A stretch of DNA of 64,000 nucleotides from an uncultured Spirochaetales bacterium (GCA_964428555.1 CAYRYS010000003.1:95-64094); one strand, 5' to 3'. Counted from the stretch's first letter, positions 10,421-52,700 are shown. Notes: generated by a model from the letters alone, not told the origin. Made by a program: numbers and translations.

Positions 10421-11455
10421 ATGATGCATAATGTCCTTGAAAAATTACGTGATTTACAGGATGTACTGTCAAAAAAATTCGAAGTTGAACAGGAAATTAA
10501 TGATATACCAAAAGCGCTTTCAACAAAAACTGAGCTTTTGAATCGACTAAAAAAAAGTTATATAGAGCGGAATGAAAAATACGACCGGTTGAAGAAAAAG
10601 ATTTCGAGCCTTAGGATTCGGATGGATGATGCAATTTCTCAAAGAGAAGCCTATGAAAAGCAGTATTCAGAAATTAAGACGCAGCGTGAATATGAAGCTC
10701 TGGATAAGGAAATTAAAGATGCAACTGAAAAAGAGCAGCATTTACGCCGTGAACTCCAAAAAGAGGAAAAGAACCTTGAGGAGTTGACAAAAATACTTGA
10801 GCGTGAAGAAGCGATGATCCAGCAGCAGGAAGAAGAGTTGAAAAAAGAGCAGGCTAATGTTGAAGAAGAAACTGGAGAAAAGCGCGACCTACTGAGGGAT
10901 TTGGAGAACCAGGAGGAAAAGATTACTCCCGGCCTGGATGAAGAGATGATCTTCAAGTTTGAACGGATTATCCGAAGTAAATCCGGTCTCGGAATTGTTC
11001 CGATCCGCGGCGGCGTATGTACAGGCTGTCATATGATCCTCCCTGCGCAGTTTGTGAATGATGTAAGAAGCGGGAAGGGTATCCTGTTTTGTCCATACTG
11101 TTCCAGAATCCTTTTTTATGAACAGGAAGAACAGATCGAAGAAAATATGTACTTTAACGAGGAAGACGCAGGAAGTCTTGCTGACCTTGAAGATTTTGAT
11201 GACGAAGACTTTATTGATGAAGAAGAGCTCGTTATTACAGACTTTGATGCTGAGGATGAAGAAGATGAAAATCTTGAAGATGAGATGGGTGAAGAGCTCG
11301 ATGAAGAAGACCTTGGAGAGGAAGAACTCGAGGATGAGGGTATTGCAGATGAAGAGCTTGATGATGAAGAGCTTGATGACGATGATGTAGAAGGAATAGA
11401 AGACGAAGAAGATGACCAGACCGAGGATGATGACTTAGAGGAGGAAGAGGATTAA
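10421..11455 (+). CDS. COG1579-type coiled-coil / C4 zinc-ribbon protein with a ~110-aa poly-acidic C-terminal tail
   Basis: Long coiled coil, then CTGCHM...CPYCSRIL zinc ribbon. The tail is almost entirely D/E. Confidence 0.7.
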   Translation: MMHNVLEKLRDLQDVLSKKFEVEQEINDIPKALSTKTELLNRLKKSYIERNEKYDRLKKKISSLRIRMDDAISQREAYEKQYSEIKTQREYEALDKEIKDATEKEQHLRRELQKEEKNLEELTKILEREEAMIQQQEEELKKEQANVEEETGEKRDLLRDLENQEEKITPGLDEEMIFKFERIIRSKSGLGIVPIRGGVCTGCHMILPAQFVNDVRSGKGILFCPYCSRILFYEQEEQIEENMYFNEEDAGSLADLEDFDDEDFIDEEELVITDFDAEDEEDENLEDEMGEELDEEDLGEEELEDEGIADEELDDEELDDDDVEGIEDEEDDQTEDDDLEEEED

Positions 11456-11877: not shown

Positions 11878-12822
11878 ATGAATTACCCGAATTCTAGATT
11901 CCAGTTTAGATCTCGAAAAAAGAAGAAGAGTAGAAAGCTGCTCATTCTGATAGCAGGAAGTATTCTGCTATTTGTAACAGTTATTTCTGTCTTTGTATTT
12001 CGAGACTCCATTCCCTTTATTCAAACAAATGAAGCAGAAGATGTTGATTTATTAGCATTGTGGAACGAGGGTAACTATACTCTTATTATCGAAGAGTGTA
12101 ATACCATTCTAATTGAAGAACCTATGAATGGGACTGCACTTGTTCTTAGCGGTTTTTCTTATTTTTATCACGCCCTTTCTCAAAATTCTTTAGAAGAAAA
12201 AATCCGCTTGCTGGATATATCAATTGCACACCTTAGAAAGTCAGAACTTGTGGCTGAAGCACCCCTCGCTAGGCAGGTAGATTATGTCCTTGGAAAAGCA
12301 TACTATCTAAAGGGTAAGTTTTATGCAGATTTAGCGATACAGTATCTTGAGACAGCACTGGAGTCCGGGTTCATTAATGACGACTTGTACGAGTATCTTG
12401 GACTTTCATATAGCCAAATAGGAGACTATGAAAATAGTATTCACTATTTTCTTTTAGCATTGGAAGAAAACGAGAGTGATCTGCTATTTCATACTCTTGG
12501 CCGCACTTACTATATCATGGAGAATTTCGGTGCTGCAGAGGAATATCTTACACGTGCTGTTGAAATAACTGAAGATCCGGAATTAGAGGAGAAATGTGTT
12601 TCTCTTCTTGCTGAAATCTATATGAATAGTGAAGAATATGAGCGTGCTGAAGAGCAGTATAGAAGACTGCTCGAGATTGACCCTCGTTCAGCTGATGTTC
12701 ATTTTTACTTAGGTGAACTCTACGAGGAGATAGGGGATACGGTCCGTGCCCGATATGAATGGAGAGAAGCTTTAAGAATAAATCCAGATCATTACGGAGC
12801 CCGCTTGCGTTATTATCAATAA
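11878..12822 (+). CDS. TPR-repeat protein with N-terminal basic segment and single TM helix
   Basis: KKKKSRKLLILIAGSILLFVTVISVFVF membrane anchor. TPR-like 34-aa periodicity (YYLKGKFYADLAIQYLETALE and others). Confidence 0.55.
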   Translation: MNYPNSRFQFRSRKKKKSRKLLILIAGSILLFVTVISVFVFRDSIPFIQTNEAEDVDLLALWNEGNYTLIIEECNTILIEEPMNGTALVLSGFSYFYHALSQNSLEEKIRLLDISIAHLRKSELVAEAPLARQVDYVLGKAYYLKGKFYADLAIQYLETALESGFINDDLYEYLGLSYSQIGDYENSIHYFLLALEENESDLLFHTLGRTYYIMENFGAAEEYLTRAVEITEDPELEEKCVSLLAEIYMNSEEYERAEEQYRRLLEIDPRSADVHFYLGELYEEIGDTVRARYEWREALRINPDHYGARLRYYQ

Positions 12823-12897: not shown

Positions 12898-13938
12898 ATG
12901 GGGTTGGGAAAATTTTTTGATGCCTTTTCTGCGGACATAGGAATAGATCTTGGTACTTGTAATACCCTGGTTTATGTCCGCGGAAAGGGAATTGTAATCT
13001 CGGAACCGTCAGTTGTTGCTGTAGAACGAGGTACAAAAAAAGTAGTTGCTGTCGGAGCTGAAGCAAAAAGAATGCTTTGGAAGACCCCGGGCGATATAAT
13101 TGCAATACGGCCTTTGCGGGATGGTGTTATTGCTGACCTGGAGACCACTGAAAAAATGATTAAGTACTTTATCACGAAAGTACTGCCTCGGAGCTGGTTT
13201 GTTAAACCGAGAATGGTAATCGGTGTACCAAGCTGTATAACAGAGGTTGAGCGGCGTGCTGTTGAAGAGAGCGCGTTTAATGCTCGGGAAGTTAAGGTCA
13301 TTGAAGAATCGCTTGCTGCTGCAATTGGAGCAAATATACCAATCTTTGAACCGGCAGGACATATGGTATGTGATATCGGAGGCGGTACGACTGAGATATC
13401 AGTTATTTCGCTCGGCGGTATGGTAGTAACTAATGCGATCCGCCTAGGGGGCGATGAGTTCGATGAAGCAATAATTAAACATGTACGGACTGTTCATAAC
13501 TTAATTATAGGGGAGCAGACAGCAGAAAATTTGAAAGTGACTATTGGAAATGCATCGCCTGATAAAAAGATTGAGAAAATGGAAATAAAAGGCACAGATG
13601 CTATTACCGGACTTCCCAGAAGACTTGAAATTGATAGTGTTGAGGTCAGAGAGGCCTTGCAGGAACCCATCAATGCGGTTATAGAAGAGATAAAGCGGAC
13701 ATTAGGGCAAACACCGCCGGAGCTTGCAGCAGATATTGTGGAACGCGGCATTGTAATGACTGGTGGAGGATCGTTATTAAAAGGATTTCCAAAACTCATT
13801 GCAAAAGAAACAGGCGTTCCTGTTATATTGGCTGAAAATCCATTGTATTGTGTTGCTCTTGGTGCAGGAATGTATTATGATCATGCAAAAGGTGCGAATA
13901 ACGCCAATAGAAATATATATAACAAGCTAAATGTATAA
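12898..13938 (+). CDS. mreB: Rod shape-determining protein MreB
   Basis: [35 protein letters not shown] actin-fold motifs. GGGAGG RBS. Confidence 0.95.
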
Positions 13939-13948
13939 AACATAGAGA

Positions 13949-14803
13949 ATGTTACAACTACGCGGTTTTTTTCAAAAGCATAGAACAGGCCTGGTCTTTG
14001 CAGGACTGCTCTGTGTTTCATCAATAAGTATGGTATTCTCCACAAACACGGTATCTTTTCGTCCGGATGAGATAGGGCTCAGTATTTTCTCATTTTTCCA
14101 GCAGACTGTATCCGGGGTTACTAACTGGTTTTCAGAAACAATTTATTCTATTCAAGAGCTTGCAGAACTCCAGGAAGACTATGAAGAGCTTCAGGATAGG
14201 GTTTTCGAGATGCAGACCTATGAAACAGAGCTGGAGGAGCTTCGCCTGGAAAATGAGCGCCTGAGTGAGTTGCTGAATTTTTCTGAATCTATTGAGTTCG
14301 ATCACATTGCTGCACAGATTATTGCAAAAGACCCTGAAAATATATTTAACTCAATACAATTGAACCGCGGGAGAGTGCATGGAATTCAGCCTGGCATGCC
14401 TGTTATTGCGTATTATGATGGGTATCAGGGACTTGTTGGCAGAATTAGAGATGTAGGGTTATACACATCAATCATATTGCCGGTGTATGATAGCGGATCT
14501 TATGTTGCTGCACGGCTTCAAGAGACCAGATACGAGGGAATGGTAAATGGAAGCGGTATTTCAGAGGATCAGCTGTTTATGCAGTATGTAAGAAAACAGG
14601 CAATAGATAATATCGAATACGGAGATTTAGTTGTTACTTCAGGAATGAGTTCTGTATTTCCTGAAGGAATATATATCGGACGGGTCCGAGCAATCCAGGC
14701 CAGGGATTACGAAACATCCCTTCATATTCAGGTTGAGCCTGTAATCGATTTCCGGAGGCTTGAAAACGTGTTTATTTTGAGAGTATTAGATAATGAGAGC
14801 TGA
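13949..14803 (+). CDS. mreC: Rod shape-determining protein MreC
   Basis: Lies between mreB and mreD. N-terminal TM, coiled coil, then a beta-rich domain. Overlaps mreD by 11 nt. Confidence 0.8.
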   Translation: MLQLRGFFQKHRTGLVFAGLLCVSSISMVFSTNTVSFRPDEIGLSIFSFFQQTVSGVTNWFSETIYSIQELAELQEDYEELQDRVFEMQTYETELEELRLENERLSELLNFSESIEFDHIAAQIIAKDPENIFNSIQLNRGRVHGIQPGMPVIAYYDGYQGLVGRIRDVGLYTSIILPVYDSGSYVAARLQETRYEGMVNGSGISEDQLFMQYVRKQAIDNIEYGDLVVTSGMSSVFPEGIYIGRVRAIQARDYETSLHIQVEPVIDFRRLENVFILRVLDNES

Positions 14804-15299
14804 GTATGTTTTATCCACATTAATAATATTTGCTGCTATTGTTATACAAAGCACAATTCTCAGATACGTTTCTTTTCAAGGAATTACACCTGATATTGCG
14901 TTAATTTGTTTAGTTTTCATTTCTTTACGTAAGGGAAGTCAAGTAGGACAAGTAAATGGATTTATCGGAGGCATTCTCGAGGATTTTCTGAGTCTTGCAC
15001 CTTTGGGGTTTCATGCATTTCTGAAAACAACAATAGGTTTTTTATATGGACTGTTAAAGGGTGCTGTTATCGTAGATCCGATATTTGTCCCAATTCTGAT
15101 GGTTTCTGTTTCAACCTTTATTAAAACAATTATCTCTGGTTTTTTAATAGTTCTGTTAAATCTGGATATTACAGTAAGCGGTCTGTTTCAATACGGATTT
15201 TTTCTTGAGCTCGGATTTAATGCAATATTGACCCCATTTTTGTTTGCTTTATTAGGATTGGTACCTATATACAAAAAAACAAGGCAGGAAGGGTTGTAA
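14793..15299 (+). CDS. mreD: Rod shape-determining protein MreD
   Basis: Small polytopic membrane protein of 168 aa lying between mreC and PBP2. Confidence 0.75.
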   Translation: MRAEYVLSTLIIFAAIVIQSTILRYVSFQGITPDIALICLVFISLRKGSQVGQVNGFIGGILEDFLSLAPLGFHAFLKTTIGFLYGLLKGAVIVDPIFVPILMVSVSTFIKTIISGFLIVLLNLDITVSGLFQYGFFLELGFNAILTPFLFALLGLVPIYKKTRQEGL

Positions 15300-15303
15300 T
15301 AAA

Positions 15304-17154
15304 ATGCCCAGAGGCTTTGGTAAAAAACAAGAAACTACAATATCAAAAAGACGGACAATCGTATTAGGCATACTCATAATATTCACTACAGTCATATATC
15401 TTGGTTTTCTGTACAATCTTCAAATAACAAAGGGTATGGAATTTCTGCAAAGGGCAAGACAGGTCTCAAGAAGGACTATTCCAATTCCGGCTCAGAGAGG
15501 AGAAATCTTTGACAGAAATTTTGATACTCCTCTTGTTACTAATATTGACTCCTATGCTGTGGATATAATCCCTGCAGAAGTACCCCAAGGTCAATTTGAA
15601 GAGCTTTTTCAATCTCTTGCAGAGATACTGGAGATGGAAGTTCAGGCAATCCGCGATGCTGTACCTCCTTCGAACTATCATTTATACCAGTCAGTGGAAA
15701 TAAAAAGCGGTGTCGATTTCGAAACCATAGTCTACATTGCTGAACATATTCAAGACTTCCCAGGAGTAGGGTGGCACAGTAAGCCTATCCGGAGCTATGT
15801 AGAAACCGGATCTATTGCTCATGTACTCGGGTATGTTGGAGATATTACCAGGGAAGAGCTTCAGGTTCTATACAACGCAGGGTATACGAGTGGTTCAGTT
15901 ATTGGGAAAAGCGGAATTGAAAGGCGCTATGACCAGATCCTGAGAGGAGAAGATGGTACCAGATACAGAACTGTAGATGTTACAGGCAGGAGAGTAATAG
16001 AGGATGAAATCTTGGAAGAGGTTCCCCCAGTACTCGGGAATGACCTTGTATTGACAATAGACAGGCATACACAGCGTCTTGCAGAACAAGCCCTCGGTGA
16101 AAGGATCGGTTCGGTGATAGTATTGAAACCCTCAACTGGTGAGGTGCTGGCTATGGTTTCTTATCCATACTATAATCCGAACCAATTTTATACAGAAAAT
16201 GGTAACCATGTCTTTCGTGAGCTTTCTCTAAACCCTTATTCACCTTTTCTTAATAGAACAATACAATCCCTGTATCCTCCAGCTTCAACTTTCAAGATTA
16301 TTATGTCCCTTGCAATGCTGGAGGAAGAGGTTCTTACTGCTGATCAAGAAATAACCTGTGATGGAAGCATTACTCTGGGTGACCGCCGCTTTAATTGCTG
16401 GCGGCAAAGCGGGCATGGACCTGTTGCTTTATTAGAAGCATTTGCGCACTCCTGTAATATATATTACTATACTGTTGGCCGGGAATACCTGGGAATAGAA
16501 AGAATTGCAGACTATGCAAATAGATTCGGCTTTGGTCTGCCCACTGGTATTGACCTTCCAGGAGAACTTTCCGGACTTGTTCCTACTCCGCAGTGGAAAG
16601 AACGTTCCTATAATTCTCCTTGGGTAGGGGGAGATACGGTAAATACTTCGATAGGCCAGGGGTATCTTTTGGTTACACCGCTTCAAATAGCCAACGCTGT
16701 TGCTATGATTGCAAATGACGGTGTAGTCTACAGGCCGCATCTTGTAAGTGAAATACGTGACCCAATATCTAATGAGGTTATCCATGAGACTGAACCGGAG
16801 GTGCTGTTGAGTCCGCCATTTCGGGAAGAAATGCTGCAGCAGGTGCAGGATGCAATGCGGATGGTTGTCACTGAGGGAACAGCACAATTTGTCATTACCA
16901 CTGATGCAGTAGAGTCTGCCGGAAAGACAGGTACAGGACAGGTCGCGATTGAGGAGAATTTTCACTCCTGGTATGTTTCATATGCACCGTATGAGGCTGA
17001 GAACCCGGAAGATCAAGTTGTTATTGTTACCCAAATTGAAGCAGTAAATGAATATGAGTGGTGGGCGCCTAAAGCAACTAATATTATTCTTCAAGGAATA
17101 TTTGCTGGACAAACATATGAAGAAGCAGTTGAATCAATGAGCCTGTGGTATTAG
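15304..17154 (+). CDS. mrdA: Penicillin-binding protein 2 (peptidoglycan D,D-transpeptidase MrdA)
   Basis: Transpeptidase motifs STFK (ASTFKII), SCN (HSCNIYY), KTGT (GKTGTGQ). Sits next to rodA. Confidence 0.9.
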   Translation: MPRGFGKKQETTISKRRTIVLGILIIFTTVIYLGFLYNLQITKGMEFLQRARQVSRRTIPIPAQRGEIFDRNFDTPLVTNIDSYAVDIIPAEVPQGQFEELFQSLAEILEMEVQAIRDAVPPSNYHLYQSVEIKSGVDFETIVYIAEHIQDFPGVGWHSKPIRSYVETGSIAHVLGYVGDITREELQVLYNAGYTSGSVIGKSGIERRYDQILRGEDGTRYRTVDVTGRRVIEDEILEEVPPVLGNDLVLTIDRHTQRLAEQALGERIGSVIVLKPSTGEVLAMVSYPYYNPNQFYTENGNHVFRELSLNPYSPFLNRTIQSLYPPASTFKIIMSLAMLEEEVLTADQEITCDGSITLGDRRFNCWRQSGHGPVALLEAFAHSCNIYYYTVGREYLGIERIADYANRFGFGLPTGIDLPGELSGLVPTPQWKERSYNSPWVGGDTVNTSIGQGYLLVTPLQIANAVAMIANDGVVYRPHLVSEIRDPISNEVIHETEPEVLLSPPFREEMLQQVQDAMRMVVTEGTAQFVITTDAVESAGKTGTGQVAIEENFHSWYVSYAPYEAENPEDQVVIVTQIEAVNEYEWWAPKATNIILQGIFAGQTYEEAVESMSLWY

Positions 17155-17164
17155 GAATACGAGA

Positions 17165-18475
17165 ATGAAATCGAAGAGTATATTAAATATAGATATATTG
17201 CTGATACTGGCAACCATAATTCTCATGATAATCGGAATACTCTTTATATATTCCAGCGGCGTAACGTCTACTGGAGTGGTATTTTCCAATGAATATATTA
17301 AACAGATAGTTTGGGTTATTACCGGAATTATTATCATGTTTACTATTGCATTCTTCGATTATCAGTATTTTTTTGATTGGTCGCCGATTATATACGGATT
17401 AATTGTTCTGTTGCTGGTTCTAACGTTATTTTTTGGAGCTATAGTTAATGGAGCACGGTCATGGCTACAGATAGGCGGAATAGGAATACAACCTTCAGAA
17501 TTCATGAAAATTGCTGTGATAATTTTTCTTGCCAGGTATTTATCTACTTCTGCACAGGAGATACATAAGATACAGCAATTTCTTATTGCTTTTGCAATCA
17601 TTATGGTGCCGGTCCTTTTAATTCTACTGCAGCCGGATATGGGTACTGCCCTAGTATATCTTCCTATTTTCTTCTTTATGACATTTGTTTCCGGTGCAAA
17701 GGTGCGGCATATCCTGTTTATCTTTTTTACAGGTTTGCTTACTATAGTGTTGGCTATGGTACCATCCTGGGTACAGTTTATCCACGGAGAAACAATCAAT
17801 TGGCTTGCCTTTTTAACAGAAAGGTCCTTGACGATTATTGTTGCACTGTCATTTCTGCTTATGACAAGTATCGCTGGAATAGGTTTTCTTGTATTCAAGC
17901 GAATATATTTTTATTGGATTACCTATGTGCTTTCTATAGTTACCCTTTCATTTTTCTTTGCAATCGGGGCTCAGATGGTACTTCAGGATTATCAAATAAT
18001 GCGGCTCATAGTTTTTTTAGACCCGGAAGTTGATCCCAGGGGTGCAGGGTGGCATATTATTCAATCTGTGACTGCAGTCGGATCAGGAGGCTTCCTTGGT
18101 AAGGGATTTCTCCAAGGCACACAAAGCCATTATCGTTTCCTTCCTCAACAAAGTACTGACTTCATATTTTCTGTAATCGCAGAGGAGTGGGGGTTTATTG
18201 GAGGAATCTTAGTCTTTACCCTTTTTCTGATAATATTAGTCCGTGGTCTCGTTATTGCAGGTACTGCACAGGATAAATTTAGCGGATACATTGCTGCAGG
18301 CTTAGTTGGCATGTTCTTTTTCCATTTTGTCATTAACATTGGTATGGCCATGGGCATTATGCCAATTACCGGGATTCCTCTTCTTTTTATAAGTTACGGC
18401 GGATCATCCTTGTGGACTGCATTGGTAGGGGTTGGTATTCTGGTAAACATAGCAATGAAAAAAAACCGCATCTAA
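17165..18475 (+). CDS. rodA: Peptidoglycan glycosyltransferase RodA (SEDS family FtsW/RodA)
   Basis: Polytopic SEDS membrane protein. Immediately follows mrdA. Confidence 0.85.
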   Translation: MKSKSILNIDILLILATIILMIIGILFIYSSGVTSTGVVFSNEYIKQIVWVITGIIIMFTIAFFDYQYFFDWSPIIYGLIVLLLVLTLFFGAIVNGARSWLQIGGIGIQPSEFMKIAVIIFLARYLSTSAQEIHKIQQFLIAFAIIMVPVLLILLQPDMGTALVYLPIFFFMTFVSGAKVRHILFIFFTGLLTIVLAMVPSWVQFIHGETINWLAFLTERSLTIIVALSFLLMTSIAGIGFLVFKRIYFYWITYVLSIVTLSFFFAIGAQMVLQDYQIMRLIVFLDPEVDPRGAGWHIIQSVTAVGSGGFLGKGFLQGTQSHYRFLPQQSTDFIFSVIAEEWGFIGGILVFTLFLIILVRGLVIAGTAQDKFSGYIAAGLVGMFFFHFVINIGMAMGIMPITGIPLLFISYGGSSLWTALVGVGILVNIAMKKNRI

Positions 18476-33822: not shown

Positions 33823-34479
33823 ATGTACAGGTATTTTTTTCTCTTGCTTTTCCTTTTTCACGTTTTTTTTGTAAATAGTGAAGATTTACAGAATTTTGTG
33901 CAATCCTCTTCTGAATATGAAAATACCATAATAGTCCAGTTAATAAAAGAGTCTAATTTCCATGACCAGTGTATTATTTTTGAGAATCTTCCTTTTCGTG
34001 AAGATTGGAATTTTCGTGAAATATTGCGAGAGCTTTCAAGCAGAATGTACACTATTCCGGAACCTAGGAAAGAGCACTTATTAATGCTTTTTTATGTATC
34101 AATGAATCAACAGATAGCTTCAGGTCGCGGAAATATTGCTACTGAGTCACAGTTTTTCCTTAATGATGTAGCCACAGGATTTCCTGGATTTCATGACCAC
34201 TATCTCAGGGCTGCGGTCATGGATTTCTGCAGATATAATTACCAGAGTACACAGCTGCTGGATATTGCGGGAGAGGCAGGAGAATACCTTGCTGAGGTTT
34301 ATACTTCAGGTATTCACGATCTTGATATTCCTGGTTTAGAATTAGAGGTTTTATCCTTTTTACGGTTGGCTGATGAGATTGACAGTGTAAGCTACTATCC
34401 GTATTTCACTATAATTTTGGAAAATACTTCATCAGAGCGGATTGCAGATGAAATACATGAAATAGTTACTGATAATTAA
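33823..34479 (+). CDS. Hypothetical secreted protein (218 aa)
   Basis: The ATG at 33823 gives signal-peptide-like MYRYFFLLLFLFHVFFVNS. The ORF-track start at 33640 would run antisense over the recA start. No motifs recognised. Confidence 0.45.
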   Translation: MYRYFFLLLFLFHVFFVNSEDLQNFVQSSSEYENTIIVQLIKESNFHDQCIIFENLPFREDWNFREILRELSSRMYTIPEPRKEHLLMLFYVSMNQQIASGRGNIATESQFFLNDVATGFPGFHDHYLRAAVMDFCRYNYQSTQLLDIAGEAGEYLAEVYTSGIHDLDIPGLELEVLSFLRLADEIDSVSYYPYFTIILENTSSERIADEIHEIVTDN

Positions 34480-34925
34480 AAGACTTTTTCGCTGTCTAAT
34501 AAGATAGTAACTGGTCCTGTATTGACTGAGGTTATTTGCATATAGCTTTGAAAGATCCCTGTTTGCGGCGGGAATCCGAGGTTTGAGCAAAACTCTAAAA
34601 AACGCTCATACAGGTATTCTGCTTTCTCAGGAAGCTCAGCTTTGTTATAAGAAGGGCGTCTGCCTTTTCTTGCGTCAGCTTGGAGCGTAAATTGTGATAC
34701 TACAAGCAGTTCAAGGCCTAGGTCTTTGAGGGAGAGGTTCATTTTTCCATTGCTGTCTTCGAAGATGCGAAGGTTTATAATTTTGTCAGCAAGGTACTTT
34801 GCCGATTTTTCTGTGTCCCCTTTCTGGACGCCCAGGTAAACTAATAAGCCGTCGGAAATATTGCCTGTTTCTTCTCCCTTTGATATAACACTTGCTTGAG
34901 AAACCCTTTGTACAACAGCACGCAT
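34476..34925 (-). CDS. dtd: D-aminoacyl-tRNA deacylase
   Basis: MRAVVQRV...GLLVYLGV...SQFTL motifs, ~149 aa. Confidence 0.9.
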   Translation of the reverse strand: MRAVVQRVSQASVISKGEETGNISDGLLVYLGVQKGDTEKSAKYLADKIINLRIFEDSNGKMNLSLKDLGLELLVVSQFTLQADARKGRRPSYNKAELPEKAEYLYERFLEFCSNLGFPPQTGIFQSYMQITSVNTGPVTILLDSEKVF

Positions 34926-34931: not shown

Positions 34932-36023
34932 TTATTCGCTCCTTTCCGAGAGCCGGTGAAGCGAGACTCCGCGAAGACGGATTGACGGTGAGTCTCCGTA
35001 TAACTCTATTTGAGCAAGGATTTCATAGGGTAATCCTTCGTGCAGGGTCGTTGCAAATTCAAGATACACTGGAACCACGCCTTCGAGAAGGCGTTCATCT
35101 TCGTATCCTACAAGAAAGTCAAAGCGGATTGCATCTTCACCAATTGTAAGATTACTCAATCTTCCGGACCAGCGGATATAACAGCCGTCATGCAACAGGG
35201 GGTTGGATTCTACTGTTTCATAGGAAAAGTTTCTTCCGAAGGTGGAGAAATTCGGCTCATTCAGGTGGTCAATGAAACCAGTTACATGATCTTTAATATT
35301 TTCATTTGCATTTGAGAGAAGTATCCGGTTTACCTCCCGCCGTACAAGGTTGTCGTGGTATTGGTCAAAGAGCCGTTGTATTTCCTGCAGCTTGTTTTCA
35401 AGTTCCTGGTCTGAAAATATGAATTGAAATGTCTCTGAATAGTTTGTAATCTCGCCTGCAAGGATCTGTTCAGTAATTTCAGGACCGCTTCTATGGCGGT
35501 CTGTAGATTCTATAAGCTCTGGTATGTAACGTATGCCGAATGGCACAGAACTTCCTATTATTACCAACAGAAGAAAGAGAAATATATATTTACCGGGTAT
35601 ATATACCGGCAGTTTGGGAAAAAAGCGTTTAAAGTGCTTGCTTTCTATGAACTCATATATTGCACCGTTTTCAGGCATTCTTCTAATAGTGTTTAGAGCT
35701 TTTTGGGCTTGGTTGTTTTTAGGGGCGTCCTCAAGAACATTAAGCAGTATCCGTACTGCTTCCTGAATATTTCTTCTTTTTAACGCAACTGCTGCTATTC
35801 CAAGGCGTGCATCAATATCTTCAGGTTTAAGGTTTAGGGCTCTTCTTAAATAGGAATCTGCGCCTCCGTAGTCCAAGGTGTACAGGCAGGATGTTCCCAA
35901 AAGATAAAAAAACTGGAAGCTTTCTCTAAAACGGAAAACCTGAGGTTCGAGTATGCGGATAACTTCAGCAAATTGTCTCCGCTTAAAAAGCTTCCTTGCC
36001 TTATTGAGTGTGTTATCTTTCAT
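34932..36023 (-). CDS. TPR-repeat protein with a central TM helix and C-terminal extracytoplasmic domain
   Basis: N-terminal TPRs (LGTSCLYTLDYGGADSYLRRALNLKPEDIDARLGIAAVALKRRNIQEAVRIL), TM IFLFLLLVIIGSSVPF. The C-terminal domain is unknown. Confidence 0.5.
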   Translation of the reverse strand: MKDNTLNKARKLFKRRQFAEVIRILEPQVFRFRESFQFFYLLGTSCLYTLDYGGADSYLRRALNLKPEDIDARLGIAAVALKRRNIQEAVRILLNVLEDAPKNNQAQKALNTIRRMPENGAIYEFIESKHFKRFFPKLPVYIPGKYIFLFLLLVIIGSSVPFGIRYIPELIESTDRHRSGPEITEQILAGEITNYSETFQFIFSDQELENKLQEIQRLFDQYHDNLVRREVNRILLSNANENIKDHVTGFIDHLNEPNFSTFGRNFSYETVESNPLLHDGCYIRWSGRLSNLTIGEDAIRFDFLVGYEDERLLEGVVPVYLEFATTLHEGLPYEILAQIELYGDSPSIRLRGVSLHRLSERSE

Positions 36024-36029
36024 GGCATG

Positions 36030-37088
36030 TTAATTATTGCCGTTCTCCACTTTGTTTTCAAGTTCCTCAATGAGGTTTTCGAGTACTTCTATCTCAGATT
36101 CTGTAATTTCTCTATCAAGACTGAGGAGGCGGTCTATCTGATTTATAATGTCTCTAACGCGTATAAGATCTGTACGGATAGTGTTTTCCGGTGTTGCATC
36201 CTCTGCGCTTGATTCGTTAGATCTTTCATGTAGAGCATGTAGCTCTTCATTGGACGTTTCAGCTGTGCTCGCAGAGAAGCCACTGGTATTGAAATTTCCG
36301 ATAGCAAGGGTAATTTCTCTAGAAGAGCCTGATGCAACTGTGGTTGGATTAAAGTACACAGCTGCTGCTGAATCATTGATAGAATATGGGAGTCTGGAAA
36401 AATTACGAGTAGTATTTACATCATAGGACCATGGTGTGTCATCCAGTCTTTTCCAGTTTGCGAAAACAACTCTATCTGGGCGTGTAATTCCTTCTCCTGA
36501 AAGAGATTGCATGAAACCAATATCGCTGTTTTCCTCTTTGGAAACCCATAATCCTGTGGATGAGTTGGCATTGATTGAATATTCTCTGTTTATGGTCTGC
36601 ATTTCTGAACCCACAAAGAAGTGGTTGTTCTCATCCTCCCCAAGATAGGTGTCAAATAAATACCGTGCTCCGATCGAAAGTGGTTGTTCAGAAACATTCT
36701 CAATAGTAATGGTGATTAGTACCCCATTGGCCAAAGAAGAATTTGCCGAGCGGATTAGCTGGAAACTTTGCGTAACTGTTGCTTCAGTGGACTGCCAGGA
36801 AATTTGGGCACCATTAACCGTTTCCTCAACGGACTGGCGAAAGCTTCCTGACTCTCCCATTCTGTAGACACGGTTTTCAATCAGTACGCTAAGTACTGTA
36901 GTACGAGGATCTTGAGTCAAAAGCAAAGGGGTATACTGATTTCTGCTTACATTTTCAAGATAATAGATGCTGAAACGACCGGTGTTTTCATGGATAATGA
37001 GCTTGATTCTGCCTTCACTGATCTCCAGTCCTGATAATTGCAGCGAGAACAACAAAGCTAATATGCATAATAAAAAGACTCGTTTCAT
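36030..37088 (-). CDS. Hypothetical secreted protein with C-terminal coiled coil
   Basis: Signal peptide MKRVFLLCILALLFSLQLSG, a beta-rich N/S/T-rich body, and a C-terminal heptad region (EIEVLENLIEELENKVEN). Confidence 0.5.
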   Translation of the reverse strand: MKRVFLLCILALLFSLQLSGLEISEGRIKLIIHENTGRFSIYYLENVSRNQYTPLLLTQDPRTTVLSVLIENRVYRMGESGSFRQSVEETVNGAQISWQSTEATVTQSFQLIRSANSSLANGVLITITIENVSEQPLSIGARYLFDTYLGEDENNHFFVGSEMQTINREYSINANSSTGLWVSKEENSDIGFMQSLSGEGITRPDRVVFANWKRLDDTPWSYDVNTTRNFSRLPYSINDSAAAVYFNPTTVASGSSREITLAIGNFNTSGFSASTAETSNEELHALHERSNESSAEDATPENTIRTDLIRVRDIINQIDRLLSLDREITESEIEVLENLIEELENKVENGNN

Positions 37089-37089
37089 T

Positions 37090-38154
37090 TTAATTCTCCA
37101 GTTCGTTTGCTAGTTGGTTGAGAAGCTGTGCACGAACGTCAAGGGCGCGTGCCTTTAAGGCAAGCAATTCATCATTATAGCTGTCAGTGTCAGTTGTTTG
37201 AGTTGAAGTATCTTCTGTGTCTGATCTGCTTGACTCTTGAGATCGGCTTTGTGTATCTGTGGTTTGAGCCTGATCCTGCACCTGGGCAAGAGATGATTGT
37301 GTCTGCCGTAGAGACTGATTTGCTGTTTCGAGCTGAGACTGAAGGTTTTCAATACTGCTTTCTAAACTGGAGACTTGGTCCTCTAAAACTTCAATTCTAG
37401 ACTCCCGTAATGAAATAGTGTTTCGAAGCTCCTGGATTAAAGAATCAGTATCTTGTTGTGCTAATGTTGACAAGCGGCGTTGGTAGGAAGCAATAGCCTG
37501 TTCATAGGTACGCTCTCTTCTCTGATATTCTTCCTGTGCCTGGATTGCTTCTTCATGGCTCCAATTTAGGAGTTGCAATAGCTGCTCTTCCCTCCTAGAA
37601 AGATCTATTAAGGAAATCTTATAGTTTGCAGCCTCAACCTTAAAGCTTTCAGGATAGTTTTGTACAACTTCATGAAAAACAAGGCGTGCTTCATCAATGC
37701 GGCCAAGCTCAAATAGGCTTTCTCCGATCCAGTAAAGGGCATTTGCAGCAAAGGGGCTCTGAGGATAGTCTTCTAAAAATGCACGTAAAGACAGGATTGC
37801 AGATTCATAATTATCCTGAAGATAAAGAAGTCTGCCCTGCTGATACAGCGCTTCAGGATAATTAGGGTTATCCTGGTAATTATTGAGAAAAAACGCCAAG
37901 TTCCGTTCAGCTTCGTTATATTGGTGCAGTGCTAGATAAGATTTTGCTATCCAGAAATAGGCACTTCCATGATACTCCTGAACAGAGGAGTCTAATACGA
38001 TCTCCCGGAAACTAAGGAGTGCTTCAGAATACTGGGAATTCTGGAAATAGTTCAAACCTTCCTGCATATTTTCGGGAATAGCAGGTGTTTGTGCTGCAAT
38101 GCAGAAGCTGAGAAAGAGGAAAATTAGTATAAAAATGTGTTTAATATTCTTCAT
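37090..38154 (-). CDS. Secreted TPR protein (YbgF-like) with a long C-terminal coiled coil and a Q/S/T-rich tail
   Basis: Signal peptide, TPRs (ALYQQGRLLYLQDNYESAILSLRAFLEDYPQS...ANALYWIGESLFELGRIDEA), then a ~150-aa coiled coil. Its stop lies 1 nt from the next gene. Confidence 0.55.
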   Translation of the reverse strand: MKNIKHIFILIFLFLSFCIAAQTPAIPENMQEGLNYFQNSQYSEALLSFREIVLDSSVQEYHGSAYFWIAKSYLALHQYNEAERNLAFFLNNYQDNPNYPEALYQQGRLLYLQDNYESAILSLRAFLEDYPQSPFAANALYWIGESLFELGRIDEARLVFHEVVQNYPESFKVEAANYKISLIDLSRREEQLLQLLNWSHEEAIQAQEEYQRRERTYEQAIASYQRRLSTLAQQDTDSLIQELRNTISLRESRIEVLEDQVSSLESSIENLQSQLETANQSLRQTQSSLAQVQDQAQTTDTQSRSQESSRSDTEDTSTQTTDTDSYNDELLALKARALDVRAQLLNQLANELEN

Positions 38155-38253
38155 GTGTAAATCCTACCCTTTTTATATTCGACTTCTTCTAAGTATAACT
38201 CAAGTGTATATCCTGCAATAGATAAAAAATCCATGAATATAGAGACTAATACA

Positions 38254-38916
38254 CTATTGTTTGCCGCGTAGAAGACGAACCTCTTTTTGAGGGTCCTCAG
38301 CTTTAAAAAATGCTGAACCTGAAACAAGAACATCAGCACCCGCATTGTGCAGGTCCGCTGCTGTAGAGGTGTTAACACCGCCGTCAACTGAAATGGTAAA
38401 ATCAAGGTTATGCGACTTACGGTAGCTATCTAGTTCGCGTATTTTTTCCACGCATTGGGGGATAAGTTTTTGCCCTCCGAATCCCGGATTTACTGTCATT
38501 ACGAGGATGAGATCGATAAACGGAAGCATCTCTTTTACAGCACTAACGGATGTGGAAGGTACAATAGAAATACCTGCGTTTACTCCAAGCTCTTTAATGT
38601 TCTGCATAATTCTATGCAGATGTACCTCTGACTCATAATGTACAGTAATAGAATCAGCTCCGGCATTTACAAAATCCTGGAGGAATCTGCTTGGGTTTTC
38701 GATCATAAGGTGGACATCCAGTGGAAGTACTGTATGTTTTCGAAGGTCTTCAATGAATTTTGGGCCAAAGGTAATATTCGGAACAAAGTGACCATCCATG
38801 ACATCAAGATGGATCCAGTCTGCATCTGAATATTCTATCCGTTTAATCGCGTTTTCAATATTGGAGAAATCTGCGGAAAGTATTGATGGTGCTATAATAA
38901 TTCTATCTCTTTTCAT
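38254..38916 (-). CDS. rpe: Ribulose-phosphate 3-epimerase
   Basis: IAPSILSADF, HLDVMDGHFVPN, TVNPGFGGQK motifs. Confidence 0.95.
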   Translation of the reverse strand: MKRDRIIIAPSILSADFSNIENAIKRIEYSDADWIHLDVMDGHFVPNITFGPKFIEDLRKHTVLPLDVHLMIENPSRFLQDFVNAGADSITVHYESEVHLHRIMQNIKELGVNAGISIVPSTSVSAVKEMLPFIDLILVMTVNPGFGGQKLIPQCVEKIRELDSYRKSHNLDFTISVDGGVNTSTAADLHNAGADVLVSGSAFFKAEDPQKEVRLLRGKQ

Positions 38917-40203: not shown

Positions 40204-42891
40204 ATGGCTGAAGGTATTGTAAAGAACATACAGGAACAGTTAAATGAAGAGAAATGGACACGGGCAACATTAAATAGCTATACAATAAGCAATTTTAAAG
40301 AGCTAGACGAGATTATTAATGAAACCTTTGAGTCTGACCAGGAAGATGAGGTAAAAGATATTTGCGATGAACATCTGGCGCATACGAAGAACAGTATCAT
40401 TGCATTGTATATTTCCGGCATTATTGCCCTGAGCAGACAAATTGTGGATGATGCTAATCTTATACGTCTTATTCACATTTTTATGGATAATCATAAATGG
40501 AAAATCGTTGAATTCCTATGTAAACGAATTCTCGATTTCGGGGAAAACAGATACGCCTTACGTACACTTGCCGAGTGCTATAATAATGAAAGTCAAGAAG
40601 ATGAAATGTACGAAGTCTGGGAACGTCTTATCCGGGTAGATTATGAAGAAACTGAAATTGTCAGACACCTTGCAGAACGGAAAGAAGAAGAAAATGATAT
40701 TGAAGGCGCAATTGAATATTATAAAAAAGCAATACACCGCTATATAAACAAAAAGCAGTTTGCAGCGGTAAAGGATATATGGGCAAAGCTCATTGAGTAC
40801 TGTCCTGAAGAAATAGATTTTTTCTACCATATTGAAGCAAAAATCGCGAAGGTCTTAAGTGAAGACAGAGCAGCCCAGCTGCTTACTGATCTCTACCCTG
40901 TGTATAAGGAAAAAAAGAAGTGGTCAACAAGTGTGGAAATACTGAAAAAAATACTGGAGTATGATCCGAAAAACACTTGGGCAAGATCGGAAATTGTTTT
41001 CTGCTACAGGCAAATGCATGCTGATCACAGCCAGCTGGAAGAATATATTAAGCTTTCAAATCTGAACCAGAACTGGAGAAATGTTCATGATGCGATTGCT
41101 GATTTTGAAAAGCATATTTCTTTTGATAAGGGAAATTTTGTTTATCACCGTACATGGGGAATCGGGAGAATATCCTCTATTGAAGATGATACAATTGTTG
41201 TAGATTTTGCCAGAAAACGTGGACACGAAATGTCTCTAAAAATGGCAGTAAGCGCATTGACTGTGCTTGCAAAAGAGCATATTTGGGTGCTGCGTAGTGT
41301 ACTGAAAAAGCAGAAACTTCACGATAAGGTGAAAAAGAATATTGCCTGGGCGCTGAAGATGATTATAAAGAGCTTTGATAATGAAGCTGATATGAAGCGA
41401 ATAAAAACAGAGCTTGTTCCAGGAGTACTTACTCAAGGAGAGTGGTCATCTTGGAGCACTGAAGCCCGTAAAATACTAAAAACAAATCCTGCTTTTGGCA
41501 CGCACCCGGAAAAACCGGATAAATACATGGTACGTAATAAGCCCATGTCTTTTGAGGAAAAACTCTATAATAAGTTTAAGGCGGAGCGAAATTTCTTTGG
41601 CAGGATTAGTACATTACAGGAATTTATTGGCTATAAGAATGCAGATGTTGACTCAGAGTATTTCGCGGAAATGTTCTCCTATTTTACTACATTTCTAAAA
41701 TCATACTCCACTGTAAATGAGAATATTATTTGTTCCTTTTTAATAGTTAATAAGATTGTTAATATTTATCCATATTTAGGCAGAGAACTGAATGTAAACT
41801 TCAGAGAACTGTTTCAGCAGATAAAAAGTGTTGAAGACATTTTCCAAAAAATTGAAAATACTGAGCTAAAAAAGGATTTTCTTGCACTCATCCGGAGAAA
41901 TGTAGCTTCCTGGCCTATGTTTTTTATACAGCTGTTCCCTTACTATATGTCACGGTATATTATCGATACATTAAAAGAAGGGGGCAAGCAGGAAGAGCTT
42001 AAAGAACTCGTTATTAGAATGTACGATAATTACCGCGAATTCCGTGAACCCTTTGTATGGCTTGTACGGAATGTACAGGAAGAAGAATGGTTTCAAGAGA
42101 TTAACATTCCGTTTGAAAAACTTCTCATCTGTATGATCCATCTTCTGGATATTACTTTTAGGGAGATAAATAACAGACGGGATGTAAGTCTAAATAGGAA
42201 GATTAATAAGCAGATACAAACCTATCTGTTAAAAGAAGACCACCTGAAGAACTATATTGCTCAAGCAGATGAAGAGGCTATTACTAGGCTTTATACCCTT
42301 GTAAGTGACATTAAAGACCTTGATGCTGCATTGAAAATCGAACTTCGCCATACAATTATTGAGAGGTTCCCGGATTTTAAATTCCTCGGCGAAGAGGAGA
42401 AGGAAAGTGTTAGCAGGAGACTCCTTGTTACAGCAGAGAGCTATGAAAGAAAACAATCTGAGCTTCGGCACATCCATGAAGTAGAAGTACCGGAAAACTC
42501 CAAAGAAATTAGTGAAGCACTCCAGCATGGAGACCTTCGTGAGAATGCCGAATATAAAGCAGCAAAGGAAAAACAGGACATGCTGAACAATGCGGCTGCA
42601 AAGCTGAAAGAAGAGATTGAAAAAGCACAGATATTCGATAAGAAGAGCATTGATACTTCGAAGATTTCATTTGGAACTGTTGCTAAACTAAAGAATCTTG
42701 ACTCAGGTGAATCCGAGGAATATACACTTCTGGGACCATGGGAATCTAATCCGAATGAAAATATTATCTCCTATCTTTCGCCACTGGGTAATGAATTATG
42801 GGGACACACTCAGGGCGAGGAACTGGAATTCGTAATAAATGAAAGGAAATTTCATTATCTCATAGAGAAAATATCTCAGGCAAAACTTTAA
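40204..42891 (+). CDS. greA: Long-form transcription elongation factor GreA: ~750-aa N-terminal extension of unknown function plus a C-terminal GreA/GreB module
   Basis: The C-terminal ~150 aa carry LQHGDLRENAEYKAAKEKQDML (Gre coiled-coil) and an FKBP-like domain ISYLSPLGNELWGHTQGEELEF. ATG at 40204 with a GGAGATGAGGG RBS. The track start at 40144 overlaps the upstream gene. Confidence 0.7.
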   Translation: MAEGIVKNIQEQLNEEKWTRATLNSYTISNFKELDEIINETFESDQEDEVKDICDEHLAHTKNSIIALYISGIIALSRQIVDDANLIRLIHIFMDNHKWKIVEFLCKRILDFGENRYALRTLAECYNNESQEDEMYEVWERLIRVDYEETEIVRHLAERKEEENDIEGAIEYYKKAIHRYINKKQFAAVKDIWAKLIEYCPEEIDFFYHIEAKIAKVLSEDRAAQLLTDLYPVYKEKKKWSTSVEILKKILEYDPKNTWARSEIVFCYRQMHADHSQLEEYIKLSNLNQNWRNVHDAIADFEKHISFDKGNFVYHRTWGIGRISSIEDDTIVVDFARKRGHEMSLKMAVSALTVLAKEHIWVLRSVLKKQKLHDKVKKNIAWALKMIIKSFDNEADMKRIKTELVPGVLTQGEWSSWSTEARKILKTNPAFGTHPEKPDKYMVRNKPMSFEEKLYNKFKAERNFFGRISTLQEFIGYKNADVDSEYFAEMFSYFTTFLKSYSTVNENIICSFLIVNKIVNIYPYLGRELNVNFRELFQQIKSVEDIFQKIENTELKKDFLALIRRNVASWPMFFIQLFPYYMSRYIIDTLKEGGKQEELKELVIRMYDNYREFREPFVWLVRNVQEEEWFQEINIPFEKLLICMIHLLDITFREINNRRDVSLNRKINKQIQTYLLKEDHLKNYIAQADEEAITRLYTLVSDIKDLDAALKIELRHTIIERFPDFKFLGEEEKESVSRRLLVTAESYERKQSELRHIHEVEVPENSKEISEALQHGDLRENAEYKAAKEKQDMLNNAAAKLKEEIEKAQIFDKKSIDTSKISFGTVAKLKNLDSGESEEYTLLGPWESNPNENIISYLSPLGNELWGHTQGEELEFVINERKFHYLIEKISQAKL

Positions 42892-49892: not shown

Positions 49893-51178
49893 TGGCGTAC
49901 CTTTATTATCATCAACAAAAGTCCTATAAATAAAATTATAAAATTCGGAAGCCACATTGATAAAAATGGTGAAAAATCCATGCGGAGACCAAGTGTTTGC
50001 CCTGCTATGAGCATACCCCAATAAAATACTGAAATAAACAAGCCTATTCCAAAGCCAACAGAACGGCCGCTTCGCTTGGTAAACAATCCTGCAGGAAGCG
50101 CAAGAAAAAGAAATGTGAGACAGGCAGCAGGAACCGAGAATTTTTTATAAAACTCCAGGTTATATATACTTAAGCTTCTGTCATCTATCTCCTCACTTGC
50201 AGAAGAATAATACCGTCTGAAGGTATTTTCAATATCATTGTTAAGGGTCGGTTGCTGTGGGTCCTCAGCACGCATAGTATAGTGTTCATACTGCTGTATA
50301 AGTTCAAATTCAAGATTCCTTAACTCTATCTCATGAGAGGTGATCTGTTCATTCAGCGCAGCCTGCTTTTCCTGTATTGCGCGGTAGACATCCACAGAGC
50401 TCATTTCCCGGGGACCTGGATTCTGAAGAGAAAAGGATACATTTGACAAAAGAATATTATATATCATATTTGAAGATTCAAAGTATGAGAAATCATTTTC
50501 GGTTTCCGGATCAATGCTTTGGGAAAGAATGTCTTCCAAATTAAGGGAAATAACCCCGCTTTGTTCCTCGTTTTCTTCGAGAAAAGCCCTATCTGCAAGA
50601 ATGACCCGGTTCTCCTCTTCCCCGGTTTCATCAATAATGATCATGTTATTGATTTGATTCCCCTCAACTCTGCCGGTGATCAAAGTGCTATCTTCGTACC
50701 GCTTTACTGAATAGGATTCAAGTTCAAGCTCAGGCGCACTGTAAAGCAGCTCCCTGTACAAACGGGAGAAATTAATACTCCCAAGGGGCAGAAGATAGTC
50801 ATTAACAAAAAAGGATCCCACAGACAGCAGTGTTCCAGCGAATAAAATTGGAATAAACATTTTACGCAAAGGAATTCCGGATGCTCGGAACGCAAGTACT
50901 TCGTTATCAGAGGAAAATCGTCCCATTGCCATAAGTCCGCCAACCAGGGATCCGAATGGAGCTGAAAGTGCGATAATTGAAGGGAGTGAGTATACAATTA
51001 GAAGAAAGACATCGAAAAGAGCAACCTGTTTTTCCAGTATATCCTCAGCAAGAAGCAGTATTTGATTAATAAAGAATATAAAAAAGAAAAAGAGAAATGC
51101 TACAAAAAAGGAGAGGATAAATTCTTTCCATATGTACCGTGTTGTAATACTAAAAAAACGCATGCAAAAGCCTTTCAT
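49889..51178 (-). CDS. LptF/LptG-family permease (YjgP/YjgQ), paralogue of the downstream gene
   Basis: Same architecture as the downstream paralogue, with a SLVGGLMAMGRFSSDNEVLAFRASGI-like conserved segment. Confidence 0.7.
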
Positions 51179-52700
51179 CTAAGCGTACAATTCCAGAGTC
51201 CAAAGTAGCAAAATAAATATAAGGTGTGCAATATGTTATATCAGAAATCTGCAATCCAGGTAACCCTGAATTGAGTCCCATTTGTGCATGCAGCTGCCTA
51301 TCTGAGCCAATAACAAGTATTCCTGCATCCATTGTCGCAGCAAAGGTGTAATCTATGCCCCTAATTATTGAGACAATATCTTGTTGACCATCAGAACCAA
51401 GCTGTATTTGTTCTATGTTTTGATTGCCAACTTCATTGTAATATATACCGTGTCCCACTGTGGAGATCCACACTGTGCGGTCCGGATCAATGTAGTAATC
51501 AGATACATGGATGTTTGGCAGGGTGATATCTGCCCGCCCTAAATTTGTAAGGCTCAGGGAAGAGATATCTAGGGTATAGCTGCCTCTGCCCTGGGTCCCG
51601 ATAAAAAGAAGCTCCTGGTTAAACAGGCATAGTGCATCAATGGATCTAATATCTCGTCGGCTTGCAAGTACAGGAATCCATGCTCCTTGTTGATACAGCC
51701 AAAGCCCGTTGTCTGCAGTGCCTGCAAACAAGCCTGAGGGTGTGTATTCGATACTTCTTATTCTATTCGGGCTGGATACAGACGTATTGGGAAGAATATG
51801 AAAACTACCGCTTGACTTATTGTATGAAAACACATTTCTGTACTGTGCAATATATACATGGGTATTCGTAACACAGATATCTTCTACTGATTGTACATCA
51901 ATTGTATCTTGGCCATGTACAAATACCCGAGTGCTGTTGCTGCTTGTATCTATTCTGCCGATTTCTCCATTCCATGTCCCATACCAGAGGTCGGAGCCGT
52001 CGGCATCCAATATAGAATACTGAAGAGATTCTTCAGAGGAAGAAAAAACTCCTTCTTGGAATAAATACCTTTGTATTCGCCCCCTTATCCGTTGGTTGTC
52101 CAGCACCTGTGGATTCTGAGTTACAATCTGCAGCAAAGTCGGATTAATCTGCTCTGTAACAGCTTCAGTTAGAGAAAGCACAGCAGCCTCTGCGTAAGTC
52201 TCTTGTACTGCTGGGGGTGCTAAAAAAAAGTATGAAAGAAAGTGGCGTCTGCTTTGGCTGAAAAGGCCTTCTCTATATTCTATAGTTCCAAGGAAAAGAT
52301 AAAACTGAGGCCCAGTTGCTCTGCTGGAAAACCTGGAATCTAAAAACGAAGCTATCTCAAATGCCTCATCCTGGGGAAGCATCTCCAAGGCTGAGTTTCT
52401 CAGGTGAGAATAGGCCCTATCAATTTCATTTTCAGGATACATTTGGTATGACTCAATAAGAAGCTGCCGTACTGATTGATAATTTTCAGTCTCTGCGGCT
52501 TCTGCTAACTGTTGAAACAGTACAAGGGGTTCGGCCAGAGAGGATGCCTCTTCAGTAATACAGTCCTGTTGCCTGTTTTCTGGTGCATAGGTGTTTTGTT
52601 CTTCTGAAAGACCTACACAGCTGAGAAGTATAGAAAATAGAGTCAGGTAAAGACAATTGTGTGCAAGCCTAATGGCCTGTTGACCCAAAACCACCGGCAC
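51150..52700 (-). CDS. Lipoprotein with an N-terminal helical region and a C-terminal two-component-regulator-propeller-like beta-propeller
   Basis: Lipobox LLSCVG. Repeats of the form hydrophobic-GT..G.hydrophobic ([70 protein letters not shown]). Confidence 0.55.

Follow-up and report, generated by a model that had tools for sequence, protein, structure and literature searches.

The window analyzed here is a 64,000-nt stretch of DNA from an uncultured Spirochaetales bacterium (GCA_964428555.1 CAYRYS010000003.1:95-64094), and all coordinates of open reading frames (ORFs) are positions in it. Its minus strand carries three consecutive genes, P1, P2, and P3, in the order rpe, P1, P2, P3, dtd, with spacers of 99, 1, 6, and 6 nt (ORF list). 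A sequence-only reading of the region had given the same order, strand, and spacing, except that the first spacer was stated as 100 nt. P1, P2, and P3 are genes and not chance ORFs, because full-length homologs of all three were present in 80 other genomes at 30–50% identity. Members of the trio were named "hypothetical" or "TPR protein" (TPR, tetratricopeptide repeat) throughout the databases. The cluster is ordinary in its gene structure and is an uncharacterized class-wide spirochete module that would belong with the periplasmic TPR-based envelope scaffolds. It combines a CpoB-type TPR protein of inverted architecture with two domain families that have no curated model.

Searched against the GTDB collection, the P2 profile retrieved relatives from 242 species-level genomes, and neighborhoods were counted in the best 80 loci. 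The presence of each neighbor was scored by tblastn of the window proteins against these loci, with only informative loci used as denominators. All 80 loci belonged to Spirochaetota (Spirochaetales, Sediminispirochaeta, "Treponemataceae"/Rectinemataceae, and Ca. Thalassospirochaeta). P1 was directly upstream of P2 in 77/77 loci, and P3 was directly downstream of P2 in 73/73. Thus, the co-occurrence and synteny check suggested with the sequence-only reading gave a clear answer: the trio is strictly co-inherited. The gene rpe was upstream of P1 in 61/70 loci, and dtd directly followed P3 in 54/68. The median gap was −1 nt between P1 and P2 (overlap in 47/73 pairs), 9 nt between P2 and P3, 10 nt between P3 and dtd, and 61 nt between rpe and P1. 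In most loci, the genes of the trio overlapped or were no more than 10 nt apart; P1, P2, and P3 are very probably translationally coupled. In loci with broken synteny, the flanks varied, whereas P1-P2-P3 was unbroken, and no recurrent functional partner was found in these flanks. Therefore, the stable unit is P1-P2-P3, whereas rpe and dtd, although often next to it, are dispensable. The operon proposed previously held as a tight, co-conserved P1-P2-P3 unit, but not for rpe and dtd, which were outside the core.

The order P1-P2-P3 was also found in a "Treponema sp." metagenome-assembled genome, in one 3.26-Mb genome, and in Breznakiellaceae and Rectinemataceae; further family members came from termite-gut Spirochaetia. 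A P2 search from a 'Treponemataceae' query matched only Rectinemataceae-like metagenomic proteins and no named Treponema homolog. The trio evolved faster than its neighbors (mean Kimura distances: trio, 1.03–1.12; recA, 0.26; rpe, 0.64; dtd, 0.67). With recA and GRAD (the GRAD-type long GreA of Table 1) regressed out, the distance matrices showed partial correlations of 0.45 for P1-P2 and 0.38 for P2-P3, and of 0.08–0.10 with rpe. We regard this correlation as soft support for the trio.

The features of the locus are listed in Table 1. P1 is soluble and periplasmic rather than a lipoprotein, because its signal peptide was of the signal-peptidase-I type and no conserved cysteine was found in the N-termini of 40 orthologs. 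P1 scored 100 bits against TIGR02795 (cutoff, 90.1), a score drawn from two partial stretches, and all 43 orthologs examined matched this model (best E = 2.7e-36), which together with the CpoB model was the top family. By sequence, P1 was closest among PDB entries to the TPR domain of Escherichia coli CpoB (6g5s, E = 3.4e-14), followed by Xanthomonas YbgF (2xev) at E = 1.3e-7. The initial description of P1 as a secreted, YbgF-like TPR protein was therefore accurate as to export and the TPR domain. In the stalk that follows the TPR domain, residues 181–228 were strongly conserved among 75 orthologs (…LLKLLKWSHEE…REKTYEQAI..YQ.KL), and residues 231–295 formed a variable heptad-like coiled coil (heptad scan). 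A coiled coil of approximately 150 residues had been described at this place; the heptad-like helical region was recovered, but its extent (approximately 175–295) was nearer 120 residues. The Q/S/T-rich tail described with it was recovered as a T/S/D/Q-rich stretch at residues 299–325, within the spacer, and the conserved amphipathic helix lies beyond it. Column identity in the spacer was 0.05–0.12, with gaps of up to 85% (75 orthologs), and its DNA in the window contained no tandem repeat.

P2 belonged to no curated family. Searches with single sequences, with every alignment member, and with profiles gave no Pfam or NCBIfam match for the window protein or for any of 45 aligned homologs (no Aldose_epim or other Pfam match at E ≤ 1) and no PDB match by sequence. 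The family is large: a word-indexed search gave 825 homologs, and cluster representatives numbered 2255 at E ≤ 1e-3 (408 of them at E ≤ 1e-30). All homologs among those seen were named "hypothetical protein." Sequences were only approximately 40% identical, and the alignment nevertheless contained 25 invariant columns, which lie in the beta-supersandwich domain and in which D, E, H, N, W, K, and R are frequent (including H156, E151, E169, and D146); its motifs were QDPRT, YLFDTYLGE..HF, FANWKRL, and LPYSINDSA. The AlphaFold2 (AF2) model (predicted local distance difference test [pLDDT], 88; predicted template modeling score, 0.85) consisted of an N-terminal signal helix, approximately 20 beta strands at residues 20–265, and two long C-terminal helices (residues 300–323 and 330–351). 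Thus, P2 is secreted and beta-rich as first described, but the helices read as a C-terminal coiled coil were modeled as an intramolecular hairpin.

In a Foldseek search of the PDB, P2 matched best to phosphorylases of families GH94, GH65, GH149, and GH161 and to cyclic-glucan synthase, in the part made up of the N-terminal module and its helical linker (E to 9e-9, for GH94). The best single-domain superpositions were with the P1 domain of YidC (3bs6; template modeling [TM] score, 0.59) and with aldose-1-epimerase-like proteins (0.55–0.56), among them YphB (3nre; 0.56). The beta-supersandwich fold had a Foldseek probability of 1.00, with TM scores of 0.55–0.59 to 3nre, 3dcd, and 3bs6. A galactose-mutarotase-like beta-supersandwich usually binds or accompanies carbohydrate. 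P2 shares the fold of the N-terminal modules of GH94, GH65, and GH149, and a helix pair comes after its sandwich, as in the GH94 and GH65 modules. In contrast to these modules, to the YidC domain, and to YphB, P2 showed only 9–13% identity, no hidden Markov model (HMM) match, and no (alpha/alpha)6 catalytic barrel, and it stands alone in the periplasm. On these fold matches, P2 is a stand-alone periplasmic version of a carbohydrate-accompanying or carbohydrate-binding module, without the catalytic barrel.

In some P2 orthologs, the beta domain was separated from the terminal helices by long inserts of low complexity, rich in A, P, S, and T (for example, L083:8001-9377, 458 residues; L085:6280-7458, 392 residues, with GNPSPST repeats), which parallels the hypervariable spacer of P1. 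The P3 of the first of these loci (L083) was shortened to 292 residues.

Only one of 396 P2-family proteins was multi-domain (P0442, L086:250-1626, JGI metagenome 3300005201). Its N-terminus held a DPBB domain of the RlpA type (PF03330, E = 8.6e-7, slightly over the gathering score), with P3 5 nt downstream and no P1 within 249 nt upstream. RlpA-type DPBB domains bind and cleave peptidoglycan glycan strands. The fusion is only a pointer, because a metagenome scan found no second copy.

P3 was modeled with high confidence (AF2 pLDDT, 93.5). Pfam TPR families were matched in 48/48 members, and the TPR domain superposed on a consensus TPR with a TM score of 0.88. P3 had no N-terminal signal, and the bias of lysine plus arginine at the transmembrane helix was N-in in 33/48 orthologs and opposite in 6. 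Since positive charges lie N-terminal of the helix and a signal is absent, a cytoplasmic location is predicted for the TPRs and a periplasmic one for the helical/OB domain, the bitopic topology that the sequence-only reading had also assigned. The halves on both sides of the membrane were well conserved. The C-terminal 190 residues had no Pfam, NCBIfam, or PDB sequence match in searches with the single protein, all members, and profiles; conserved motifs were RDNLA.REINRLLLSNAS in the helical bundle and W.G…FDFLVGY…LEG in the OB-fold. Foldseek matched the OB part to 8txr_B, 4gop_B, and 4joi_B (ExoVII, RPA, and Stn1; root-mean-square deviation of approximately 2.7 Å over 81–92 columns). At the fold level only, P3 resembled TTC5/Strap (4abn), which likewise combines TPRs with a five-strand OB-fold; in P3, however, the TPR and OB domains are on opposite sides of the membrane. 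Also at the fold level only, the OB part was likened to periplasmic OB-fold domains of bitopic proteins. Mapping to well-characterized families had been named as the outcome that would speak against the proposal; P1 mapped to one by a domain only, and P2 and the C-terminal part of P3 by fold only.

Table 1 Features of the P1-P2-P3 locus, in window coordinates
Feature	Position	Strand	Evidence
P1, exported, 354 residues	37090..38154	-	ORF list, family models, orthologs
P1 signal peptide, approximately residues 1-21, signal-peptidase-I type (…IAA/Q, cleavage at the slash)	38092..38154	-	Hydropathy, ortholog N-termini
P1 TPR domain, residues 30-180, YbgF/CpoB/BamD type	37615..38067	-	TIGR02795, PDB matches
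P1 helical stalk, residues 181-295	37270..37614	-	Conservation profile (75 orthologs), heptad scan, coiled-coil Pfam matches
P1 hypervariable T/S/D/Q-rich low-complexity spacer, residues 296-326	37177..37269	-	Ortholog conservation profile
P1 conserved C-terminal amphipathic helix, residues 327-354, LL..K..AL.LK..YL..L	37093..37176	-	Ortholog conservation
P2, exported, 352 residues, uncurated spirochete family	36030..37088	-	ORF list, homolog searches
P2 beta-supersandwich, residues 20-265, galactose-mutarotase-like	36294..37031	-	AF2, Foldseek
P2 C-terminal helices, residues 280-351	36036..36251	-	AF2: helical hairpin after low-confidence linker
P3, bitopic inner-membrane protein, 363 residues	34932..36023	-	ORF list, AF2 model, orthologs
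P3 cytoplasmic TPR domain, residues 1-135, conserved motif LEPQVFRFRE	35619..36023	-	Pfam, Foldseek, charge bias
P3 single transmembrane helix, residues 144-171	35511..35594	-	AF2, hydropathy, charge bias
P3 periplasmic domain: helical bundle, residues 205-278, and five-strand OB-fold, residues 282-357	34953..35411	-	AF2 pLDDT >90
rpe, ribulose-phosphate 3-epimerase	38254..38916	-	TIGR01163, 287.5 bits
Spacer rpe-P1, 99 nt	38155..38253	-	Sequence reading
dtd, D-aminoacyl-tRNA deacylase	34476..34925	-	TIGR00256, 179 bits
TPR317, cytoplasmic TPR protein, 317 residues	39225..40178	+	Divergent from rpe
GRAD-type long GreA (GRAD-GreA), 895 residues (HTH_GRAD, GRAD_C, GreA_GreB)	40204..42891	+	Divergent from rpe

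The folds of the trio were all of interaction or ligand-binding type, and Pfam and NCBIfam recognized no catalytic family in any of the three proteins, as the absence of catalytic motifs noted at the outset had indicated. The reading that we tentatively favor, as a possibility rather than a probability, is that P1, P2, and P3 are subunits of a spirochete-specific, inner-membrane-anchored periplasmic scaffold that acts on the wall or envelope. The assembly of the trio, its ligand, and its partners are predictions. P3 would anchor the complex and couple a cytoplasmic partner through its TPRs, and its periplasmic domain, together with the helical hairpin of P2, would be the docking site of the conserved helix that ends P1. 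The ligand of P2 would be a glycan of the periplasm, most likely the strands of peptidoglycan. The P1 stalk would keep the CpoB-like TPR domain off the membrane, where this domain might recruit or regulate envelope enzymes or outer-membrane partners. In the Tol-Pal system, CpoB coordinates wall synthesis or remodeling with the outer layers; the module might be functionally akin to it, coordinating wall synthesis or remodeling with the outer layers through other partners and with no Tol motor.

Several points weigh against this scaffold. The trio is built from generic folds (TPR, OB, and beta-sandwich), and in GH94 and GH65 the homologous beta-sandwich module is itself not the sugar-binding catalytic domain. 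No peptidoglycan-synthesis or hydrolase gene directly adjoined the trio in any locus, and the DPBB-P2 fusion is a single metagenomic contig (1/396 family members). The mirror-tree signal was weak and confounded by the similar evolutionary rates of the three genes.

A Tol-Pal-like assembly had been suggested for the cluster, and this was half right: the TPR domain of P1 is of the CpoB type, but P1 is not a member of the family. P1 and CpoB are both exported soluble proteins with a YbgF-type TPR domain and a coiled coil. In CpoB, however, the trimerizing coiled coil is N-terminal and the TPR domain is C-terminal, whereas the order is reversed in P1 (TPR, residues 30–180; helices, residues 181–354), which has the hypervariable spacer and the end helix in addition. 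Against the full-length CpoB model NF008068, P1 scored 53 bits (cutoff, 383), with residues 113–183 aligned to positions 156–226 of 263. In neither the window nor the 80 related loci did a tol-pal gene flank the trio; its neighbors were rpe, dtd, recA, and a greA-like gene. Membership in CpoB/Tol-Pal was rejected because of the score far below the cutoff, the N-terminal position of the TPR domain, and the lack of nearby tol-pal genes. In an evolutionary survey of CpoB and Tol-Pal, cpoB adjoined tol-pal in approximately 70–75% of species, and CpoB outside Proteobacteria was mostly a lipoprotein encoded beside tol-pal (PMC12204202); the survey contains no spirochete data. P1 differs from these nonproteobacterial proteins in being neither a lipoprotein nor beside tol-pal and in always adjoining P2 and P3. 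BamD/YfiO was rejected as well (TIGR03302, 47 bits vs. a cutoff of 81.4; no conserved N-terminal cysteine in the 40 orthologs).

The scaffold reading can be stated more boldly, in a form that we consider doubtful. The trio would be an unrecognized spirochete-specific trans-envelope machine that replaces CpoB/Tol, in which P3 links a cytoskeleton- or divisome-type partner to the periplasm, P2 founds a new family of peptidoglycan-glycan-binding or -processing proteins, and the P1 stalk is a length-variable spacer that positions the CpoB-like TPR domain in the flagella-housing periplasm. To our knowledge, many spirochetes have no recognizable Tol-Pal/CpoB arrangement. How spirochetes coordinate wall growth, outer membrane, and flagella-filled periplasm is poorly understood, and the trio is a concrete testable candidate for this task, or else a missing piece of the flagellar collar. 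Independently of function, two domain families merit curation, namely, P2 (>2000 cluster representatives) and the C-terminal domain of P3.

Catalysis by P2 was weighed against the scaffold. P2 could be a new enzyme on periplasmic or cell-wall polysaccharide (mutarotase-, lyase-, or hydrolase-like) that P1 and P3 position or regulate. The 25 invariant positions, occupied mostly by the seven residue types listed above although sequences are only approximately 40% identical, speak for this reading; the superfamily includes true enzymes (such as aldose 1-epimerases 3nre and 3dcd); and one variant is the fusion to a lytic-transglycosylase-type DPBB domain. However, none of the 45 members had an Aldose_epim, glycoside-hydrolase, or lyase HMM match, and the best structural matches were the noncatalytic N-terminal modules of GH94/GH65/GH149 and the P1 domain of YidC. 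We therefore consider an enzymatic P2 unlikely.

A flagellar-collar-like assembly had been proposed together with the Tol-Pal-like one, and it gained no positive evidence. The trio would here be in, or would assemble, a periplasmic collar or stator scaffold, with P3 as anchor near the MS ring or stator and P1 and P2 as struts. The Borrelia collar proteins FlcA, FlcB/BB0058, FlcD/BB0236, and FlcE/BB0298 are exported spirochete-specific TPR scaffold proteins encoded off the flagellar operons, amid housekeeping or dcw genes (bioRxiv 10.64898/2026.05.29.728556; PMC8609358); P1 is likewise an exported TPR protein with housekeeping neighbors, and some collar densities are still unassigned (bioRxiv 10.64898/2026.05.29.728556). 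The trio was also confined to Spirochaetia among the matches seen. However, no collar or flagellar NCBIfam model matched the trio above noise. The FlcA C-terminal model gave only weak matches in 4/43 P1 orthologs (best E = 3.1e-8; cutoff, 300 bits), which amount to generic TPR similarity, and the NCBIfam collar models did not match P2 or P3, a comparison made by sequence with the FlcA C-terminal model and by description with FlcE. FlcE/BB0298 was rejected as a homolog of P1 by description, because it is a lipoprotein encoded in the dcw cluster (bioRxiv 10.64898/2026.05.29.728556). Flagellar genes were absent from the window and from every flank examined, and none of the collar proteins has been described with a P2-type, glycan-type beta-sandwich or with a bitopic partner bearing cytoplasmic TPRs. 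A role as a flagellar motor accessory is thus quite unlikely.

In a transmembrane-signaling reading, the state of the envelope would be sensed by the periplasmic OB/helical domain of P3, assisted by P1 and P2 as co-sensors, and the signal would be relayed through the TPRs of P3, possibly to TPR317/GRAD-GreA. P3 domains are conserved on both membrane sides, TPR317 and GRAD-GreA lay within 6 kb upstream of the trio in 55/59 loci, and the P3-TPR317 partial correlation was 0.37. This adjacency is of little weight, because the whole GRAD-to-recA block is syntenic across the class. The correlation signal was weak, and output domains (kinase, anti-sigma, HTH, or any other) were absent from the trio, which leaves signaling very unlikely. 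That the trio consists of three unrelated structural proteins, merely cotranscribed with housekeeping genes and forming no complex, is most improbable: the cluster does lie within a long syntenic housekeeping block (rpe, dtd, recA, and greA-like), but adjacency and order within the trio were strict while neighbors came and went, start and stop codons often overlapped, and evolutionary rates were similarly elevated.

The envelope scaffold that we favor may provide a context for TP0470 of Treponema pallidum. TP0470 is a 369-residue protein with a non-lipoprotein signal peptide and approximately four N-terminal TPR pairs (residues 34–203), predicted to be periplasmic; the TPRs are followed by a long helix with length-variable EAEEARRK repeats and by a short C-terminal segment, and a role in envelope remodeling was proposed by its authors (PMC9531955, PMC10013896, and PMC5956850 supplement). 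The published architecture is that of P1, as compared by description only, and TP0470 is thus a lead as the counterpart of P1, by analogy of architecture. The variable region of TP0470 is a perfect 24-bp tandem repeat, whereas the P1 spacer of the window has none. The neighbors also differ, since TP0468 (650 residues) and TP0471 (469 residues) are all-TPR by published threading and resemble neither P2 nor P3; TP0468-TP0471 was therefore rejected as the T. pallidum trio with respect to P2 and P3. If P1 and TP0470 were orthologs, a function would be suggested for a clinically tracked, repeat-variable syphilis gene.

The spacer between rpe and P1 ended in a purine-rich stretch resembling a ribosome-binding site (AAAAAGGGTAGGA), 8 nt upstream of the ATG. 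A consensus scan found no promoter or terminator site in this spacer, with counts within approximately 1.5 standard deviations of the shuffled expectation, so that the scan says little about the spacer. Farther downstream of dtd was recA. The rest of the window was housekeeping (mltG/yceG, dnaG, rpoD, mreBCD-pbp2-rodA, murJ, lptFG, tgt, pnp, infB, and nusA); this content is that of a diderm with lipopolysaccharide transport and holds no specific functional clue to the trio.

Several other genes of the window were recorded in passing. The TPR317/GRAD-GreA pair was followed by a VWA protein and a HEAT-repeat protein. The dtd-recA interval contained a 218-residue ORF (33823-34479, plus strand) with a signal-peptide-like N-terminus, convergent with dtd and overlapping it by 4 nt. 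This ORF matched no Pfam or NCBIfam family, and tblastn did not detect it in any of the 80 related loci; it is therefore lineage-specific. Two further ORFs had no Pfam family: one of 344 residues after rpoD (10421-11455, plus strand) and one of 516 residues upstream of lptF/lptG (51150-52700, minus strand). A TPR protein of 314 residues (11878-12822, plus strand) was encoded directly 5′ of the complete mreB-mreC-mreD-pbp2-rodA elongasome operon (12898-18475, plus strand). Finally, adjoining yceG/mltG was a gene for a 1343-residue protein (1824-5855, plus strand) that contains Big repeats, FlgD_ig repeats, and, at its C-terminus, an OmpA (peptidoglycan-binding) domain; this protein may be an outer-membrane-to-wall tether.

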